Sequence record: PZ212788.1
Source: a phage
Direction: 5' to 3' (one strand)
DNA length: 64,000 bases
Shown here: one piece after another, positions 4,713-14,225 of the stretch
Numbering within the stretch: the first letter of the stretch is position 1
How the letters are laid out: each line of letters begins with the position of its first letter
Made by a program: the position numbers and the translations under genes
Notes under the pieces: model-generated
Database searches by the model: none
Told to the model about the DNA's origin: nothing
The model's input: the letters and a program-made list of their open reading frames with translations, nothing else

Positions 4713-5996
4713 TCATTCAAGCACCTCCCAAGTGTCTGGGTTAACATTTCGGACGCAGATACCGACAGGGAATTGGTAGTTGTTGTCTTCTGTCCTTGCT
4801 TGGTATTTGAAGGTGACAAACTTGCCGATCATTTCCTGCATCCTGTCATAGCTACGCTCCTCGTGCGTGCCTTTCATCTTCATTTTAACAACAACACCTT
4901 CCTTGTCAACACAGATAAGAACACCTTCATCATTCTTATCTTTCTCAACGTCAATAACTTTCACCTCTGCGTCGTTGAACTTTTTCCATTTCAATGCTTC
5001 AGATGTTCGCTGACCATACTCATATTTACCGCAGAAATTACGCATGATAGTACCTTCATATCCTTCGGACATGAATATACCAACAGATTCTTCGCAATGA
5101 TCAACTGTGTACGCAAGCTCTGCGTCAACAACCTTGATATGATCAAGCATCAGAGTGGTAACGGTATCCTCTGCATCCATAAGATCCTTGCAGCGTCCAG
5201 ACTCTGTTTCTGGATCCCACCACACCTTGTCGCTAGGAATATCAAAAATGTGATACTCCAGATCGTAGCTACAGTATCCACCGTAACGCAAATCATCACG
5301 AACAGGCTCAACATCGACAGGAATATCTACCTTGTTGAAGTTTTTGTATGTTGATAAGCCTGCCTTAATTGCTGCATGACGGCGTTTTTTATCTGCCTCA
5401 TAGTCTTTATCGATCTCGGCCTGAATCTCTTCCTGTGTGCGCCACCGTTTAGCAAGAGACACTATTTTCTGCAAAGGAAGACCATGAATGTATAGTTCCC
5501 CATCAAGTTGTTTAATCCCAGTGGTAGAATGGAAAGAACGAAGTTGCTCTAAAAGCTTTCCTTGAATAGGGTAGGACTTATTACCACGGGAAATAAATTT
5601 AGGCTCACCATTTTGGAAAACAACAAGCAGACGAAGGCCATCTAACTTACGCAAGATCCAGCAAGGTAATTTAAGTGCCTTGCCACGCTTCAGGTAGTCA
5701 TGCACCAGCATAGGTAAAAGATCAACACCCTGCTCGCAATCTTCCATGTTTTCAACATACCCCAGACGGACTTGTTTTTCCCACTTGCTGATAGCCTCAA
5801 GCTCGGCCTGTTGCTCAGCTGTAGTCTCGTTGGCACGACCTACGTTTTTAGGTGTACATACCGTCTCTTTGTACTGCAATTTACCGTCAAGCTTGCCAAA
5901 CTCTACGATAACCTTTTCGCCATCAGTGAATACTTTCCACTGTTGGTAGCTGCCATCTTTGTTCAGTGCGTACAGTGTTGTTTTGATTTGATGCAT
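4713..5996 (-). CDS. ATP-dependent DNA ligase
   Basis: Adenylation motif I KLDGLR, motif IV-like EGTIMR, motif V-like KWKKF; 427 aa. Confidence 0.8.
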   Translation of the reverse strand: MHQIKTTLYALNKDGSYQQWKVFTDGEKVIVEFGKLDGKLQYKETVCTPKNVGRANETTAEQQAELEAISKWEKQVRLGYVENMEDCEQGVDLLPMLVHDYLKRGKALKLPCWILRKLDGLRLLVVFQNGEPKFISRGNKSYPIQGKLLEQLRSFHSTTGIKQLDGELYIHGLPLQKIVSLAKRWRTQEEIQAEIDKDYEADKKRRHAAIKAGLSTYKNFNKVDIPVDVEPVRDDLRYGGYCSYDLEYHIFDIPSDKVWWDPETESGRCKDLMDAEDTVTTLMLDHIKVVDAELAYTVDHCEESVGIFMSEGYEGTIMRNFCGKYEYGQRTSEALKWKKFNDAEVKVIDVEKDKNDEGVLICVDKEGVVVKMKMKGTHEERSYDRMQEMIGKFVTFKYQARTEDNNYQFPVGICVRNVNPDTWEVLE

Positions 5997-6598: not shown

Positions 6599-6616
6599 AG
6601 CCGGGTAATCCCGGCT
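6599..6616 (-). terminator. hairpin terminator after gene 6623..7336
   Basis: AGCCGGG-TAAT-CCCGGCT stem-loop followed on minus strand by U-rich tract. Confidence 0.45.
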
Positions 6617-6622
6617 ATGTTG

Positions 6623-7336
6623 TTAAATATACTCTGTTACATCCTTGAAGCTCGAAGGCTTCATAATCTTACCTTTACTGTCAAGGAATATAATAACTTT
6701 ATTACCGTTGTAGAACTCCTCTTTAGCAACGAAACCTTCGTAGCGACCACCAAAACGACGCTCAAGATCTTCAATCTCTAACTCTATGAGCAATTCAGTA
6801 GACATATCTGCACTGGCACCGTGAGAATATCGTAGATGGTTGATCCGTGCAAACTTGCTGTCATTAGATTTGAGAACCTTCCGCATCATCCCACACACAT
6901 CGCCGCGAAGCTGGAACAGCAAAGCTGTTGACAACTCCGCTAAGCGGTAAGCTGACGCTCTTTGCTTGGATGTGTTTTTCGCAGCGATCAGTGTATCATA
7001 GAACTCACCGATCTTGAACTTAAGACCTCGTGGATTATCAAACAGGTTTGACCACTTTTCGTGATTATCATTAACAAGATAAGCGGCATAACTTGTGACA
7101 ACGTGAAGATCGCAGGCCTCTTTTAGCAGGTGATCTCCACCATCACCTTTCTCCAGCTCTTCCAAAACCTCATTGAACTCTTCCTCAATGAAGCTAAGCT
7201 GTAATTCGAATGGTGTGTATGATTTTTTCACTTTAGCTGCCACACGGTTCCAGTTTTCCACCCAGTTGGCAGACCAAAGGTAGTTTTCAGGCTGAGACAG
7301 TTTTTCCAGGTTGTCGATCAGTTTAGTATTCAGCAT
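6623..7336 (-). CDS. hypothetical protein; possible all-alpha NTP pyrophosphohydrolase (MazG/dimeric dUTPase-like)
   Basis: EExxE-rich helix FIEEEFNEVLEELEKGDGGDHLLKEACD resembles MazG-type metal-binding helix; weak. Confidence 0.3.
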   Translation of the reverse strand: MLNTKLIDNLEKLSQPENYLWSANWVENWNRVAAKVKKSYTPFELQLSFIEEEFNEVLEELEKGDGGDHLLKEACDLHVVTSYAAYLVNDNHEKWSNLFDNPRGLKFKIGEFYDTLIAAKNTSKQRASAYRLAELSTALLFQLRGDVCGMMRKVLKSNDSKFARINHLRYSHGASADMSTELLIELEIEDLERRFGGRYEGFVAKEEFYNGNKVIIFLDSKGKIMKPSSFKDVTEYI

Positions 7337-7349
7337 TAAAGGTCTCCTT

Positions 7350-8111
7350 TTAAAGTTCCATAAAGTTTTCTACAGTTTCAATAAATGCTTTATCAGAGAA
7401 AGCGTCAACAGCACCGTTAAACCATACAGGGATCCCGCGATCCTCATATTGATAAAGGTCGCTACGTGAAATGCCACTTCCATCTGCACTCTGCGAATCA
7501 TACTTGTTTACAATCAGCAGTTTTGTGCCTTTACAAGTAGCAGGAAACAATTCCCAGTTAAAATTAATAACTGTGTTAGAACAACCTACCAGGATCACCA
7601 TATCATTGCTTGTGAGAGATGTCAACAGGTCATACATGTCTGTATACTTAGGAGCAACCTCACCGAAGAACACTACATTGGGCTTAACCCAGGTATACTT
7701 GCCTGTATCTACCTCCGTGTATCCGATATTTTTAATTACATCATTACCTTCAGCATCTTCGTAGGTGATTTCAGGCAAATACCCGTGGACATGTAAAATA
7801 TCTTCATGTTTTACACCAGCACGCTCCAGCAAATCATCTACATTGGTAGTAAGGTTGATCACACGACCAGACCAGCGGGAATACCACTCAGCGATCCGAA
7901 GATGTGCAAGGTTAGGATCAACACTGCCCAGAGCTACACGACGTGCATTGTAAAAGTCATGCACCTTATAGTAGTTCTTGGCAAAGGTGTGGATGTTGCA
8001 CACCTCATCGATGCTGAAATTCTCCCACATTGCAGTGCTACCAGATCGGAAAGTGGGAATACCAGATTCAGCGCTCAAACCAGCACCGGAGATAATAATC
8101 AGTCGTCGCAT
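7350..8111 (-). CDS. Sir2 (sirtuin) family NAD-dependent protein
   Basis: Sirtuin motifs ISGAGLSAESGIPTFRS, TTNVDDLLERAG, HVHG, PNVVFFGE; no four-cysteine zinc ribbon. Confidence 0.75.
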   Translation of the reverse strand: MRRLIIISGAGLSAESGIPTFRSGSTAMWENFSIDEVCNIHTFAKNYYKVHDFYNARRVALGSVDPNLAHLRIAEWYSRWSGRVINLTTNVDDLLERAGVKHEDILHVHGYLPEITYEDAEGNDVIKNIGYTEVDTGKYTWVKPNVVFFGEVAPKYTDMYDLLTSLTSNDMVILVGCSNTVINFNWELFPATCKGTKLLIVNKYDSQSADGSGISRSDLYQYEDRGIPVWFNGAVDAFSDKAFIETVENFMEL

Positions 8112-8119
8112 AAGTGTCC

Positions 8120-8470
8120 TCAGTAGATGTTTTGTTTAATCTCTATTCCAAACTTCTTGAATGAGTCAGCAGCAAGCATAAATTTACGAGCTGCCGATGG
8201 ATTAGAAGTATGCACGAAAATAATCACGTTGTCAATAAGTGGTGGCTTTCCGAATACAAGTTTCTCCTCTAGCGCAGAGAAGCAGTCGTACCCTTCAAGC
8301 ACTTCACCTAGATCATTGTCAAAATGCCACTCAGAAACGCGCCTGTAGAGCTTTCTATTATCGTTAATAAAATCCATGAACTCAGAAGAGTTCTTCAGCC
8401 AAAGAGCATCTTGGATTCCGTAATTTGACGGATCTCTCAAGTCATCTAGCCACACAATCAACTTCTTCAT
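8120..8470 (-). CDS. REC/flavodoxin-like small protein, translationally coupled to RNA ligase
   Basis: ATGA start/stop overlap with RNA ligase; KLIVWLDD, HFDNDLG, IFVHTSNP resemble receiver-like fold; function inferred from context. Confidence 0.4.
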   Translation of the reverse strand: MKKLIVWLDDLRDPSNYGIQDALWLKNSSEFMDFINDNRKLYRRVSEWHFDNDLGEVLEGYDCFSALEEKLVFGKPPLIDNVIIFVHTSNPSAARKFMLAADSFKKFGIEIKQNIY

Positions 8471-9402
8471 TGCATATAGTCCTCGTTGTGAAAATAGCAA
8501 TCAAGTATCTCACGGCGTTCCTGCTCCAGGAGGCAGTTCCACACATCTTCTGTGTAATTGCTACGAATGAAGTTTACCATGCCATAAAACTCTTCGTCAA
8601 TACGTTTAAAGATATCATCATCCCAAATCTTCCAAGCTTTACCCCTCATTACGGCCTTCCGTGCCAAATAGTATGGAGACTTGATCTTCAGCTGCAGGTC
8701 ATAAGGGTAGTAAGGCTTACGGATCATATACCCTTCGCCCCTTGTTTCTGCAGCTAATTCTTTTGCATAGCTGAACGGGATTTCACGCACAGTGTGAGGA
8801 CGTTTTGCACCAAGGTATTTGGCAATCCCATCTAAAGCTGCTTCTGGTAGCATTATTCCAGAATCATTATATCTGCAACCTATCAAATATGCGCCATGGT
8901 CTTCTTGAACAATATGCGGATCTGAAGGGTGACAAATTTCAAACATGAATGTCATGTTTTCATTGCCCATAACCTTCTTGATAAGATCTAAATTACCACA
9001 TTGCTCTTGGATGGTTTCCTTTGCAAGGTTACAATATGGAGAATCAAGAGACCCGGTTGTTGAGAACAATAGGTCACCTTTATGAGATGATACCACACCA
9101 AGGAATCCGTTCTTTTTCTCTACCGCAGTCACAAGCTTATTGTCAGGCAGGTTGGTGGAGTTTTCTCCCAAGTTAAACACTTTTGTGAAGGGCCATGCCA
9201 CAACATTTCCTTCATTACCTACAACAATGCCTCGGCACTCCAGTAAACGAGGGGACAAATGCCATAAATTGTTGTAAAATACTTTTCTAGCATATTTATA
9301 GATCTTTAACCCGAGATCTGGGTAATACCTACTGGTTACAAGACCTTTATCAACTAGGTCGTCTGCATTAAAATACTTCATCATACGTTCCTCATTTGTC
9401 AT
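8467..9402 (-). CDS. rnlA: RNA ligase, T4 Rnl1 (RnlA)-like
   Basis: PRLLECRGIVVG and VFNLGEN align with T4 Rnl1 PDALECRGIMFE / FFNLNEN; nucleotidyltransferase motif I KKNGF, motif IV EGYMIRK, motif V LKIK. Confidence 0.75.
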   Translation of the reverse strand: MTNEERMMKYFNADDLVDKGLVTSRYYPDLGLKIYKYARKVFYNNLWHLSPRLLECRGIVVGNEGNVVAWPFTKVFNLGENSTNLPDNKLVTAVEKKNGFLGVVSSHKGDLLFSTTGSLDSPYCNLAKETIQEQCGNLDLIKKVMGNENMTFMFEICHPSDPHIVQEDHGAYLIGCRYNDSGIMLPEAALDGIAKYLGAKRPHTVREIPFSYAKELAAETRGEGYMIRKPYYPYDLQLKIKSPYYLARKAVMRGKAWKIWDDDIFKRIDEEFYGMVNFIRSNYTEDVWNCLLEQERREILDCYFHNEDYMQ

Positions 9403-9502: not shown

Positions 9503-9913
9503 ATGTCTAAAATGCTATATATCGTGCGTGGTCTACCAGGGTCTGGCAAATCAACACTGGCAAATGCGCTATCTTTAGAGGGTCTGTATCCACATTTTGA
9601 GAACGACATGTTCTGGTATGACGATGACGGCAATTACAACTGGGATGCAAGTAAAGTAACACTCGCAGCGAAATGGTGCAAAGATAACGTAGAAGATATG
9701 ATGCGTATGGGATACGACCGTATCGTGGTAAGTAATACGTTTACAAAAGAAAAACATGTGCAGGAATATGTTGACATGGCAATCAGTCATGGGTATAGTT
9801 ATACCGTGATCGTGGTTGAAAACCGCCACGGTAATAAAAGCATTCATGATGTTCCAGACAAGGTTGTGGATCGTATGGAACGCCAGCTTAAAAACTGCAT
9901 TAAACTTAAATGA
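9503..9913 (+). CDS. P-loop polynucleotide kinase-like protein
   Basis: Walker A GLPGSGKST directly after start, size and layout like T4 Pnk kinase domain; start set at 9503 because ORF-track Met at 9446 lies upstream of the promoter -10. Confidence 0.6.
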   Translation: MSKMLYIVRGLPGSGKSTLANALSLEGLYPHFENDMFWYDDDGNYNWDASKVTLAAKWCKDNVEDMMRMGYDRIVVSNTFTKEKHVQEYVDMAISHGYSYTVIVVENRHGNKSIHDVPDKVVDRMERQLKNCIKLK

Positions 9914-9920
9914 GGAATGT

Positions 9921-10475
9921 ATGAAATACTTTGTAACAAGCGACACACACTTTCTCCACCAGCGGGTCATGGAGTTTGATTCATGTCAAAAACACAGATC
10001 TCAGTATGATCACAATCTTGACAGTATGAATGCGGGAATCATCGCCGAATGGAACTCTGTTGTGTCACCTGCAGACACTGTGTTCCACTTGGGAGATATT
10101 GCGTGCACTAATGATAAGAATATCAACAACTTACTTCCAGATATTCTAAATATGTTGAACGGACATATTATTCTTGTTCGTGGCAACCATGACACAAGGA
10201 CGACTGTCAGAATTATGAAAGAGTTCGGTCATGAGGTTGTAGATTATTACGAGCTTCGCCACAACAAGAATTTGATCTGTATGAGCCATTACCAATTTGC
10301 AAAGTGGAACAGAAAGCCTCACGGATCAGTCCAACTGTTCGGTCATGCTCACGGAACCACACAACAGTTGTTTGGCAGGCAGCTTGATGTCGGTTGGGAT
10401 GTGTGGGGGAGACTCTTACCATTAGAAGAGGCATACCGTATTGCAATGAGTTTTGCTATTGACAGCGGGGAGTAA
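9921..10475 (+). CDS. calcineurin-like metallophosphoesterase (candidate polynucleotide 3'-phosphatase)
   Basis: Motifs SDTHF, HLGDI, RGNHD, GHAH; GAGG RBS; start 9921 eight nt after kinase stop. Confidence 0.6.
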   Translation: MKYFVTSDTHFLHQRVMEFDSCQKHRSQYDHNLDSMNAGIIAEWNSVVSPADTVFHLGDIACTNDKNINNLLPDILNMLNGHIILVRGNHDTRTTVRIMKEFGHEVVDYYELRHNKNLICMSHYQFAKWNRKPHGSVQLFGHAHGTTQQLFGRQLDVGWDVWGRLLPLEEAYRIAMSFAIDSGE

Positions 10476-13411: not shown

Positions 13412-13486
13412 GCCCTGTTAGCTTAGTGGATAAAGCAGCGGCCTTCTAAGCCGTTGACACTGGTTCGAGTCCAGTACGGGGTGCCA
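13412..13486 (+). tRNA. tRNA-Arg (anticodon TCT)
   Basis: Hand-folded cloverleaf: acceptor GCCCTGT/ACGGGGT, D arm GCTT/AAGC, anticodon stem GCGGC/GCCGT with loop CTTCTAA, T arm ACTGG-TTCGAGT-CCAGT, discriminator G, encoded CCA. Confidence 0.8.
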
Positions 13487-13490
13487 AATT

Positions 13491-13577
13491 GGGGAGTTAT
13501 CCCGTAGGGGTAGCGGTGTAGACTGTAAATCTATTGTCATTGCGACTCGGGTGGTTCGACTCCACCACTCCCCACCA
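13491..13577 (+). tRNA. tRNA-Tyr (anticodon GTA), type II
   Basis: Acceptor GGGGAGT/ACTCCCC, anticodon loop CTGTAAA, long variable arm, T arm GGTGG-TTCGACT-CCACC, CCA encoded. Confidence 0.8.
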
Positions 13578-13692
13578 AATTTATAGTTTTAAATGCATAA
13601 ATCATACAGATAATGGCATTGATATTTATCGTCGTTTATACTAGTCACTAACTGCTCGAAAATCAGTGTCATTATCAGTATTGTTTATAAAT

Positions 13693-13778
13693 GAGGGTAG
13701 GGAGCAATGGTGCTCAAGCGGTCTTGAAAACCGTCCCGTTGAGGATGACTTGATGATGGTTCGATTCCATTACCCTCA
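13693..13778 (+). tRNA. tRNA-Ser (anticodon TGA), type II
   Basis: Acceptor GAGGGTA/TACCCTC, anticodon stem GCGGT/ACCGT with loop CTTGAAA, long variable arm, T arm ATGG-TTCGATT-CCAT. Confidence 0.75.
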
Positions 13779-13879
13779 GCCATATTGTTGACCTTGTAAT
13801 TAATCGAAAGCCGGAAGCAGAACCGGATTATCAAATGTTACAGTCGTCATCGCCGACTAGCAACATGGTCAACATACTG

Positions 13880-13976
13880 AGCTAGGTAAGCCCTTTGGCA
13901 AGGGCGAGGATTTTTAATCCTGAAAATAGACGAGGTAGTCGTTGAATACATAGGTGGTTCGATTCCATCACCTAGC
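13880..13976 (+). tRNA. atypical tRNA-like element (97 nt), anticodon hairpin presenting TTT (Lys-like), with about 30-nt variable-region insertion
   Basis: Acceptor GCTAGGT/ACCTAGC, D arm GCCC-TTTGGCAA-GGGC, hairpin AGGA-TTTTTAA-TCCT, T arm GGTGG-TTCGATT-CCATC; too long for canonical tRNA. Confidence 0.4.
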
Positions 13977-13985
13977 ACCTTTTTT

Positions 13986-14061
13986 GCTGATGTAGCACAA
14001 TTGGTAGTGCAATTGATTTGTAATCAATAGGTTGCAGGTTCAAGTCCTGCCATCAGCACCA
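13986..14061 (+). tRNA. tRNA-Thr (anticodon TGT)
   Basis: Acceptor GCTGATG/CATCAGC, D arm GCAC-AATTGGTA-GTGC, anticodon stem ATTGA/TCAAT with loop TTTGTAA, T arm GCAGG-TTCAAGT-CCTGC, CCA encoded. Confidence 0.8.
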
Positions 14062-14062
14062 T

Positions 14063-14137
14063 GGCCCTGTAGCTGGAAGGTTCAAGCAAGCGACTCATAA
14101 TCGCCAGACGGTGGTTCAATTCCACCCAGGGCCACCA
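14063..14137 (+). tRNA. tRNA-Met or tRNA-Ile2 (anticodon CAT)
   Basis: Acceptor GGCCCTG/CAGGGCC, anticodon loop CTCATAA, T arm GTGG-TTCAATT-CCAC, CCA encoded. Confidence 0.7.
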
Positions 14138-14148
14138 AATAATAAATA

Positions 14149-14225
14149 CTCCGCGTAGCTCAGCTTGGTAGAGCGCCTGATTTGGGATCAGGAGGTCGAG
14201 TGTTCGAATCACTCCGTGGAGACCA
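14149..14225 (+). tRNA. tRNA-Pro (anticodon TGG)
   Basis: Acceptor CTCCGCG/CGTGGAG, D arm GCTC-AGCTTGGTA-GAGC, anticodon stem CCTGA/TCAGG with loop TTTGGGA, T arm GAGTG-TTCGAAT-CACTC, CCA encoded. Confidence 0.8.

Follow-up and report, generated by a model that had tools for sequence, protein, structure and literature searches.

A zinc-less Sir2-like protein encoded within a phage RNA ligase operon and its possible role in RNA repair

What does a sirtuin do among the RNA-repair genes of a bacteriophage? The question is raised by a 64,000-nucleotide stretch of phage DNA (sequence record PZ212788.1; hereafter the window), which carries a gene for a 253-amino acid Sir2-like protein, referred to below as Sir2, next to genes for an Rnl1-type RNA ligase, a predicted cyclic-phosphate-processing receiver-like domain (cREC) and a MazG-like nucleotide pyrophosphohydrolase. 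By its sequence the window is that of a Vequintavirus (rV5-like) E. coli phage: the window is 93-99% identical to rV5-group phages, and a 4.5-kb region around the gene is 99% identical to Vequintavirus phages, whose records label the gene 'Sir2-like' or 'sirtuin domain NAD-dependent deacetylase' (NAD, nicotinamide adenine dinucleotide), and the 'putative Sir2-like protein' of phage I29 is 100% identical to Sir2 of the window. As a finding from a genome scan the gene is not new, since public records, including T5 record AY543070, already annotate it as Sir2-like and the literature covers both the clade and its gene context. In 2022, Iyer, Burroughs, Anantharaman and Aravind described the same neighborhood as configuration 2 (Escherichia phage V5 / Proteus phage Mydo, section 3.7.3) and predicted that the sirtuin acts like KptA/Tpt1, removing a 2′-phosphate by ADP-ribosyl transfer (PMC9503650). 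The original prediction, made from the letters of the window, had called the role of the protein unknown; it overlooked this published proposal.

We found that loss of the zinc site and replacement of the sirtuin motif TQN by TTN are clade-wide and coupled, that the Tyr/Arg pair of class III sirtuins is invariant in the clade and that the link between the RNA ligase and Sir2 is lineage-specific and not general, all of which is new here. As to function, the published prediction of an NAD-dependent, Tpt1/KptA-like step in phage repair of tRNA/RNA breaks comes out as marginally the best reading. We adopt it tentatively, favoring it just slightly over a CobB-like deacylase.

Catalytic motifs, fold and zinc module of Sir2

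Sir2 matches the Pfam family SIR2 (PF02146) over profile positions 1-178 of 180 (E=6.9e-28, 98.2 bits, cut-off 24) and the phage Sir2 family PHROG 2162 over its full length (residues 1-252, E=1.5e-108, 363 bits). The sirtuin NAD-binding and catalytic motifs that had been read from the open reading frame are all present (Table 1), with HVHG at residues 107-110, and the profile and structure comparison upheld their alignment, giving 98.2 bits for SIR2 against 13.2 for SIR2_2 and CobB as the best fold match. Residues invariant across 69 clade members are S16, F21 and R22 in the cofactor loop; Y54, R57 and R58, which are the class-III pair plus R58; T89 and V91; N90, D92, H109 and G110 of the catalytic set; G130 and K143 in the equivalent of the zinc module; and P144, F148, F149 and E151 in the FGE loop. 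Sir2 is a canonical single-domain SIR2 protein, judged by these residues to be catalytically intact and equipped for NAD+ binding, for expulsion of nicotinamide and for activation of the ribose 2″-OH by His109.

An AlphaFold2 (AF2) model of the protein, made with the 69-sequence alignment, has a mean predicted local distance difference test score (pLDDT) of 89.6 and a predicted template-modeling score of 0.88. Foldseek against the PDB gave CobB as the best match (E=2.8e-18, template-modeling scores 0.75/0.83), and the top 50 matches were all deacylase sirtuins. By sequence, CobB, human and zebrafish SIRT5 and Archaeoglobus Sir2Af1 were the best PDB matches, with E values of ~1e-21 to 1e-19 (CobB/SIRT5 ~3e-21), and Thermotoga Sir2Tm (~1e-13) and SIRT2 (~1e-12) were weaker. 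Among NCBIfam models, those for CobB-type 'NAD-dependent protein deacylase' enzymes matched best (E=1.3e-35), and each stayed under its curated cut-off, with scores of 122.6 against 243 for the subfamily NF001753 and of 104 against 320 and 93 against 318 for the equivalogs NF040867 and NF001755. Sir2 descends from class III (CobB/SIRT5-like) sirtuins, to which it is closest and whose Tyr-x-x-Arg pair it shares. Because the CobB-type scores fall far under the cut-offs, we class it as a divergent relative and not as a CobB orthologue. Like CobB and SIRT5 (PDB 1S5P, 6RXQ, 2B4Y), it is a single-domain protein of the same Pfam family and of similar size, and it shares with them the GAGxSxxSGIxxFR loop, FYNARR, N-x-D, the catalytic His and the FGE loop. 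Unlike them, it lacks the zinc cysteines, has Thr for the Gln of TQN and belongs to a clade that was essentially phage-encoded in the searches made. It further differs from CobB in having VINF for VYP after the GxS strand and in its C-terminal 70 residues, which are unalignable by sequence, and the identity in structural alignments is just 25-27%.

Three cysteines (38, 177 and 193) are found in Sir2, none of them in the 33-residue stretch from HG to PNVVFFGE; the stretch of CobB aligned with residues 111-143 holds four. The original prediction was right that the zinc-binding cysteines are absent, and the loss proved to be clade-wide: among 108 parsable close homologues, the module has no cysteine in 62, one in 45 and two in a single protein. 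Sir2 does not have a Cys4 zinc module, a statement that concerns Cys ligands only, as sequence cannot exclude a metal site of another kind. HMMER, run exhaustively against 1.84 billion representatives, returned 5496 relatives, and 144 of the best 150 could be scored for both features. At least three module cysteines were present in 77 of the relatives with Gln at residue 89 and at most two in 9, whereas the relatives with Thr had at least three in 11 cases and at most two in 36; in the other 11 this position is occupied by Ser, Ala, Met or Cys. Relatives with both Cys4 and TQN occur on viral contigs too (L066, L068). Because of this association of Thr with cysteine loss, and because of the Cys4/TQN relatives on viral contigs, we take the two changes to have arisen together, in the course of a radiation of phage sirtuins in which the Cys4 module is otherwise retained.

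The AF2 model places strands at residues 110-118, 124-128 and 142-146 of the zinc-module region, the third entering the FGE loop, and pLDDT in this block is 95-97. The zinc domain of CobB has been described as 'three antiparallel beta-strands' (PMC8556138), and in the model the three-stranded module of Sir2 appears to have been kept while the metal ligands were lost. The text of Iyer et al. (PMC9503650) does not mention zinc for the sirtuin, and neither the loss of the zinc cysteines nor the change from TQN to TTN is apparently remarked upon there. A 2023 sirtuin paper in the Journal of Biological Chemistry held nothing on zinc or phages, and Sir2La of Lactobacillus, considered as a possible zinc-less precedent, was dropped since neither a preprint nor a review describes it as zinc-less. 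Separately, Cys38 (window 7998-8000, motif EVC.I) is invariant in 69 of 69 clade members despite the loss of the zinc cysteines; CobB has Ala there.

Table 1. Coordinates of the Sir2 gene, its motifs and neighboring features in the window (aa, amino acids)
Feature	Position	Strand	Evidence and remarks
Sir2 (sirtuin) coding sequence, 253 aa	7350..8111	-	open reading frame, 253 codons read from 8111 down to 7350; Pfam SIR2; PHROG 2162; AF2 model; Foldseek
NAD-binding/cofactor loop GAGLSAESGIPTFRS (aa 9-23)	8043..8087	-	aligned with CobB GAGISAESGIRTFRA; S16, F21, R22 invariant
FYNARR (aa 53-58) with class-III Tyr54/Arg57 pair	7938..7955	-	same as CobB FYNARR
TTNVDDLLERAG (aa 88-99), sirtuin TQN(I/V)D motif, Gln replaced by Thr89	7815..7850	-	aligned with CobB TQNIDNLHERAG
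Catalytic His109-Gly110	7782..7787	-	aligned with catalytic His of CobB H-M-H-G; both invariant
Zinc-module equivalent without Cys (aa 111-143)	7683..7781	-	0 Cys against 4 in CobB; G130, K143 invariant
PNVVFFGE (aa 144-151), FGE substrate-binding loop	7659..7682	-	aligned with CobB PHVVWFGE
Rnl1-type RNA ligase, operon gene 1	8467..9402	-	Pfam RNA_lig_T4_1 E=1.1e-14; PHROG 562 E=7e-66; annotated 'RNA ligase 1'
cREC (predicted), operon gene 2	8120..8470	-	Pfam cREC_REC E=5.7e-14; start from I29 annotation and sequence
MazG-like nucleotide pyrophosphohydrolase, operon gene 4	6623..7336	-	PHROG 671 E=5.7e-22; weak PRA-PH match
GC-rich hairpin, 6 nt past the MazG-like stop	6599..6616	-	terminator-like; 7-bp stem, 6 GC pairs
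P-loop polynucleotide-kinase-like protein, divergent	9503..9913	+	Pfam AAA_33 E=1e-10; PHROG 2071 and PHROG 505 'polynucleotide kinase'
Calcineurin-like metallophosphoesterase	9921..10475	+	Pfam Metallophos_2, Metallophos; PHROG 547 E=1.4e-52; start from I29 annotation
ATP-dependent DNA ligase, downstream, same strand	4713..5996	-	Pfam DNA_ligase_A_M, DNA_ligase_OB_2; PHROG 114
Phage tRNA gene cluster, 7 genes, ~3 kb from repair module	13412..14225	+	ARAGORN; context only

The Rnl1 operon and its counterparts in other phages

The ATG of the cREC gene overlaps the stop codon of the RNA ligase gene as ATGA, the gap between cREC and Sir2 is 8 nt with a Shine-Dalgarno sequence (GAGGA) ahead of Sir2, and 13 nt that include another (AAGGAG) separate the Sir2 stop from the start of the MazG-like gene. 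Sir2 is the third gene of a translationally coupled four-gene operon in the order Rnl1, cREC, Sir2, MazG-like. The hairpin behind it, AGCCGGG-ATTA-CCCGGCT, has a perfect 7-bp stem, reads identically on both strands and probably marks the end of the transcription unit; two small open reading frames lie between it and the DNA ligase gene. The RNA-repair neighbors had been recognized correctly at the outset, as the matches to RNA_lig_T4_1, cREC_REC, the AAA_33 kinase and the metallophosphoesterase show, and five neighbors (T4-like RNA ligase, cREC, kinase, MazG and phosphoesterase) all lie within 2.4 kb of Sir2. Placing the gene directly upstream of the ligase operon was a mistake: it is inside the RNA ligase operon, downstream of the ligase and cREC, and is upstream only of the DNA ligase gene. 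Comparison of the RNA ligase with PDB sequences, aimed at the choice between a T4 Rnl1-like and a Trl1-like enzyme, gave no match.

Homologues of Sir2 were found by tblastn in 1012 phage records, 289 of them from Salmonella phages. Among the carriers are T5 (T5.102, 57% identity), jumbo phages, KVP40-like vibriophages and the Mydo-like and phi92-like myoviruses. When 185,579 genomes, each representing a bacterial or archaeal species, were scanned for the sequence pattern of the clade, only two contigs matched, both from metagenome-assembled genomes, and on this evidence the clade appears essentially phage-restricted.

We surveyed the gene context at 64 viral-contig and 5 GenBank loci, whose sirtuins fell into 21 clusters at 70% identity, by searching ±10 kb with iterated hidden Markov models started from the neighbors in the window. 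Genes for Rnl1, the kinase, the phosphoesterase, MazG and the DNA ligase flank the sirtuin in 8-9 of the 10 Mydo-like loci as well as in the rV5-like one and in L048 and L050/L057, and cREC too is among the genes around the homologue in the Mydo-like phages, L048 and L050/L057; in L058, which is ended by a contig edge, only the phosphoesterase, MazG and the DNA ligase were found. The order of the repair genes in the Mydo-like loci differs from that in the window, and Sir2 identity is 45-58% in the Mydo-like and other myoviruses that keep the neighborhood and 44-47% in L048, L050/L057 and L058. The DNA ligase gene is within 1-2 kb downstream of Sir2 in the Mydo-like loci, L048, L050 and L058, and 6.6 kb away in L052. 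The functional link to RNA-repair genes that the original prediction had suggested gains from this survey, as a neighborhood kept in rearranged form in Mydo-like and other myoviruses is more than a local coincidence. The window belongs to the V5/Mydo configuration of Iyer et al., who list MazG in it as well (PMC9503650), and shows no substantive difference from it. Their jumbo type (2H, Nudix, cREC, PIN) and their T5-like type (HAD 'Swiss army knife') were recovered independently here.

T5.102, the 'putative Sir2-like protein' of T5 (PHROG 2162), is 57% identical to Sir2 over its full length and has the same zinc-less TTNVDD / IGY / K-PNVVFFGE architecture. The T5 locus is unlike the window in that HAD_SAK_2 and two DUF7415 genes replace Rnl1, cREC, the kinase and the phosphoesterase. 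Across the T5-like clusters, HAD_SAK_2 ('HAD domain in Swiss Army Knife RNA repair proteins', E=4e-20) lies 1.1 kb downstream of Sir2, accompanied by the two DUF7415 genes. In T5 itself (L001, 6142-7481), T5.105 is the HAD_SAK_2 gene, and T5.106 and T5.107, each with two DUF7415 copies, are likewise downstream of T5.102; the trio is kept in 28 of the T5-like loci examined, and DUF7415 alone stands beside Sir2 in two further clusters. When the neighbor proteins of the window were compared by tblastn with the loci of T5, ukendt and nt-1, Sir2 alone was matched. A universal cREC-Sir2 pair was also considered, with the upstream 120-160 aa genes T5.100, ukendt gene 137 and nt-1 ORF307 suspected of encoding divergent cREC domains; it was rejected, as hhalign gave probabilities of <1% and Pfam nothing.

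A third kind of setting is seen in the jumbo Yersinia phage fHe-Yen9-03 (L005, 1-8500). Directly downstream of its Sir2 gene lies a fusion of a Nudt16-like Nudix domain with cREC (cREC E=1.2e-23), and nearby are a 2H phosphoesterase whose best match is Acb1 (PF23474, E=2.6e-17) and a PIN-PhoH gene. Genes for NAD salvage, a NadM-type NMNAT/ADP-ribose pyrophosphatase and NAMPT, adjoin Sir2, and the locus looks like an NAD/anti-defense island. In the Mydo-like Klebsiella phage Iguana_ER37 (L004, 1-130), a gene annotated 'ribose-phosphate pyrophosphokinase' was noted ~5 kb upstream of the Sir2/RNA-repair cluster; enzymes of this type are used in phage NAD+ reconstitution pathways.

A proposed Tpt1/KptA-like role weighed against deacylation and counter-defense

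Together, a ligase, a kinase, a cyclic phosphodiesterase and an NAD-dependent 2′-phosphotransferase make up the Trl1 and Tpt1 logic of fungi and plants. In the proposed pathway, a host anticodon-type nuclease would leave 2′,3′-cyclic-phosphate and 5′-OH ends, the kinase would phosphorylate the 5′ end, cREC (or the metallophosphoesterase) would open the cyclic phosphate and Rnl1 would seal the break. Where a 2′-phosphate was left, one of its oxygens would then attack NAD+ at C1″ within the active site of the sirtuin, with loss of nicotinamide, the adduct would be resolved by the ribose 2″-OH activated by His109, and the resulting product would be degraded by cREC and the MazG-like pyrophosphatase. 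The Tyr54/Arg57 pair, which binds carboxylates in SIRT5 and CobB, would hold the phosphate. The 2′-phosphate is put forward as the attacking nucleophile from the gene context and from the analogy in chemistry.

We lean toward this reading because the operon is translationally coupled and RNA-end-processing partners recur in three unrelated lineages, because no Macro domain, the usual product-processing partner of sirtuins, was found among the neighbors scanned, and because the chemistries of sirtuins and Tpt1 run parallel within the Trl1 and Tpt1 logic. The tRNA cluster ~3 kb from the repair module was counted in its favor, and the NAD-salvage genes beside the jumbo-phage Sir2 fit a real consumer of NAD. 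The two-step chemistry of Tpt1 (PMC11417386) parallels the two sirtuin steps. Tpt1/KptA resembles the proposed sirtuin in its NAD+ dependence, in the oxygen nucleophile acting on C1″, in the loss of nicotinamide and in its association with genes for an RNA ligase, a kinase and a cyclic phosphodiesterase. It differs in having an ADP-ribosyltransferase fold, unrelated to that of the Rossmann-type sirtuins, and no sequence similarity to Sir2; with E values as high as 10 allowed, Tpt1-family Pfam models still gave no match to Sir2, whose fold matches are sirtuins only. Sir2 would at most be a functional analogue of Tpt1/KptA and not a member of its family, with an RNA activity that is hypothetical. 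A bolder version of the proposal is that Sir2 is the first sirtuin with RNA as its physiological substrate, a zinc-less Rossmann-fold analogue of Tpt1/KptA (or a tRNA-end deacylase) whose ADP-ribose cyclic-phosphate product cREC would clear; we consider this version rather unlikely.

Several observations weigh against a part for the sirtuin in RNA repair. Its coupling to an RNA ligase is not general, as most carriers, which are T5-like, lack Rnl1: homologues of the ligase are found in 813 phage records, of which just 14 are from Salmonella phages, compared with the 289 Salmonella-phage records that have Sir2. The annotation of T5 bases 1-50,000 has no RNA ligase, Sir2 and Rnl1 are ~31 kb apart in phi92-like genomes (MG065650: 37303-38103 and 68380-69318), and no repair gene could be recognized within ±10 kb of Sir2 in the phi92-like clusters, in Vibrio phage nt-1 or in several clusters from metagenomes. 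At the level of genomes, ligase and sirtuin occur for the most part independently of each other. The kinase and the metallophosphoesterase form a complete T4-type end-healing set, which leaves no 2′-phosphate. For cREC and HAD_SAK, too, a role in RNA repair is only predicted, which makes the argument partly circular, and with an Acb1-like 2H neighbor in the jumbo phage the context could be one of anti-defense and not of RNA repair. The sequence of Sir2 suggests no clear adaptation to RNA binding: the protein is acidic (isoelectric point 4.9, net charge -12; clade median isoelectric point 5.1), its alignable basic residues are mostly those of CobB (conserved R22, R57, R58 and R97 are shared, and K143 is Arg in CobB) and the FGE peptide loop is invariant. 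We know of no sirtuin that has been demonstrated to act on RNA, and no experimental study of any clade member was found in the literature, where a broader search brought up papers on defense systems only. Charge was also tried as a means of telling an RNA from a protein substrate and set aside as uninformative, the ligase, the kinase and other neighbors being acidic too.

Deacylation is the default activity of characterized PF02146 proteins, and Sir2 may be a CobB-like lysine deacylase of the ordinary kind, a deacetylase or desuccinylase that removes acyl groups from host or phage proteins, for example to reactivate acetylated or succinylated enzymes of translation, transcription or metabolism, the RNA-repair neighbors reflecting the usual clustering of early auxiliary genes without a shared pathway. 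This is a serious possibility, if short of probable. The whole active site and substrate cleft are invariant, including Tyr54/Arg57, the class-III pair for acidic acyl groups; the NCBIfam deacylase models match best, as do CobB, Sir2Af1 and SIRT5 in the PDB by both sequence and fold; and Sir2 is acidic, as is CobB. The model keeps the zinc module as a three-stranded, well-ordered sheet, which probably leaves the peptide cleft intact, and most carriers (T5-like, phi92-like and nt-1) have no linked RNA ligase. Such an enzyme leaves unexplained the clade-wide change of Gln to Thr, the loss of the zinc site and the recurrent context, in which genes for RNA-end processing accompany the homologue in three or more unrelated lineages of phages, and Sir2 scores far under all CobB equivalog cut-offs. 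No Macro domain that could act on O-acyl-ADP-ribose was present among the scanned neighbors. E. coli CobB reportedly restricts phage T4. Phages are not known to need a deacylase. Koyuncu et al. (2014) report sirtuins as viral restriction factors (PMC4271551), which also speaks against deacylation.

The original prediction had taken the lack of zinc as a sign of kinship with NAD-consuming defense effectors and suggested a counter-defense or host-modifying enzyme. In lacking zinc and in its TTN(V/Y)D-type motif, Sir2 resembles, in our view, defense SIR2 NADases of the ThsA/DSR type, which presumably share with the phage protein both the missing zinc ribbon and the Thr in place of the TQN glutamine. 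Sir2 could be an NAD glycohydrolase. It could also be an ADP-ribosyltransferase whose target is a host protein, DNA or an immune signal, either NAD-derived or a cyclic nucleotide. In both cases cREC, Nudix or MazG would process the nucleotide products, and the jumbo Yersinia phage homologue does sit among NadM, NAMPT, the Acb1-like 2H protein and the Nudix-cREC fusion. The kinship itself was not supported by comparison. Sir2 scores 13.2 bits with SIR2_2 (E=0.097), under the cut-off of 24.5; PADLOC (PADLOC-DB of 2023) returned no relevant model for it, just an irrelevant 13-bit match to PDC-S65; and its best matches are CobB, Sir2Af1 and SIRT5, with deacylase sirtuins filling the top 50 by fold. 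A defense-type SIR2 was rejected on this profile, PADLOC and fold evidence. Unlike ThsA, DSR1/2, SIR2-HerA and SIR2-APAZ/pAgo, the phage protein is a single domain of 253 aa with no fused or adjacent sensor or partner (SLOG, HerA, Argonaute/APAZ or a large C-terminal sensor). The FGE loop and the Tyr/Arg pair are invariant in the phage clade, and to our knowledge neither is expected in NADase-type SIR2 domains. Free hydrolysis of NAD would, moreover, harm a phage that needs it. We believe PADLOC-DB of 2023 to be older than the Kongming defense system, which its null result would then not cover. An NAD-consuming counter-defense or host-manipulating enzyme is, on the whole, improbable. By analogy only, a SIR2 protein is paired with a nucleoside triphosphate (NTP) pyrophosphatase in the bacterial Kongming system, where it is the effector (PMC13454610). 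In the window (6623-8111), the MazG-like NTP-pyrophosphohydrolase gene directly follows Sir2, and the pyrophosphatase folds may well differ.

If the Tpt1-like reading is true, the chemistry of sirtuins would reach beyond acyl-lysine to the phosphate of RNA, and phages would have rebuilt the eukaryotic Trl1 and Tpt1 logic of tRNA splicing from unrelated parts as a means of surviving host tRNA nucleases. With RNA as the substrate, cREC would become the first characterized cyclic phosphodiesterase with a receiver fold, and many of the ~1000 sequenced phages that carry the clade would have a second, convergent NAD-dependent branch of RNA repair. Should Sir2 be a plain deacylase, the clade would still offer ~1000 natural sirtuins that fold without the zinc site of CobB, which would have some value for structural and engineering work on sirtuins.

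Minor observations on related records and the tRNA cluster

About two dozen records named as 'Campylobacter phage' (MG065653, MG065676, MG065635, MG065650 and others) are 97-100% identical in this region to rV5-like or phi92-like phages of E. coli, which suggests mislabeled hosts or contaminating coliphages.

Within the tRNA cluster of the window, ARAGORN gave the order Arg, Tyr, Ser, ???, Thr, Met, Pro, and the GenBank annotation of I29 has only four tRNAs there. Inside the cluster ARAGORN calls a tRNA-like gene of 99 nt with a four-base anticodon (atcc), at window 13881-13979 on the plus strand.

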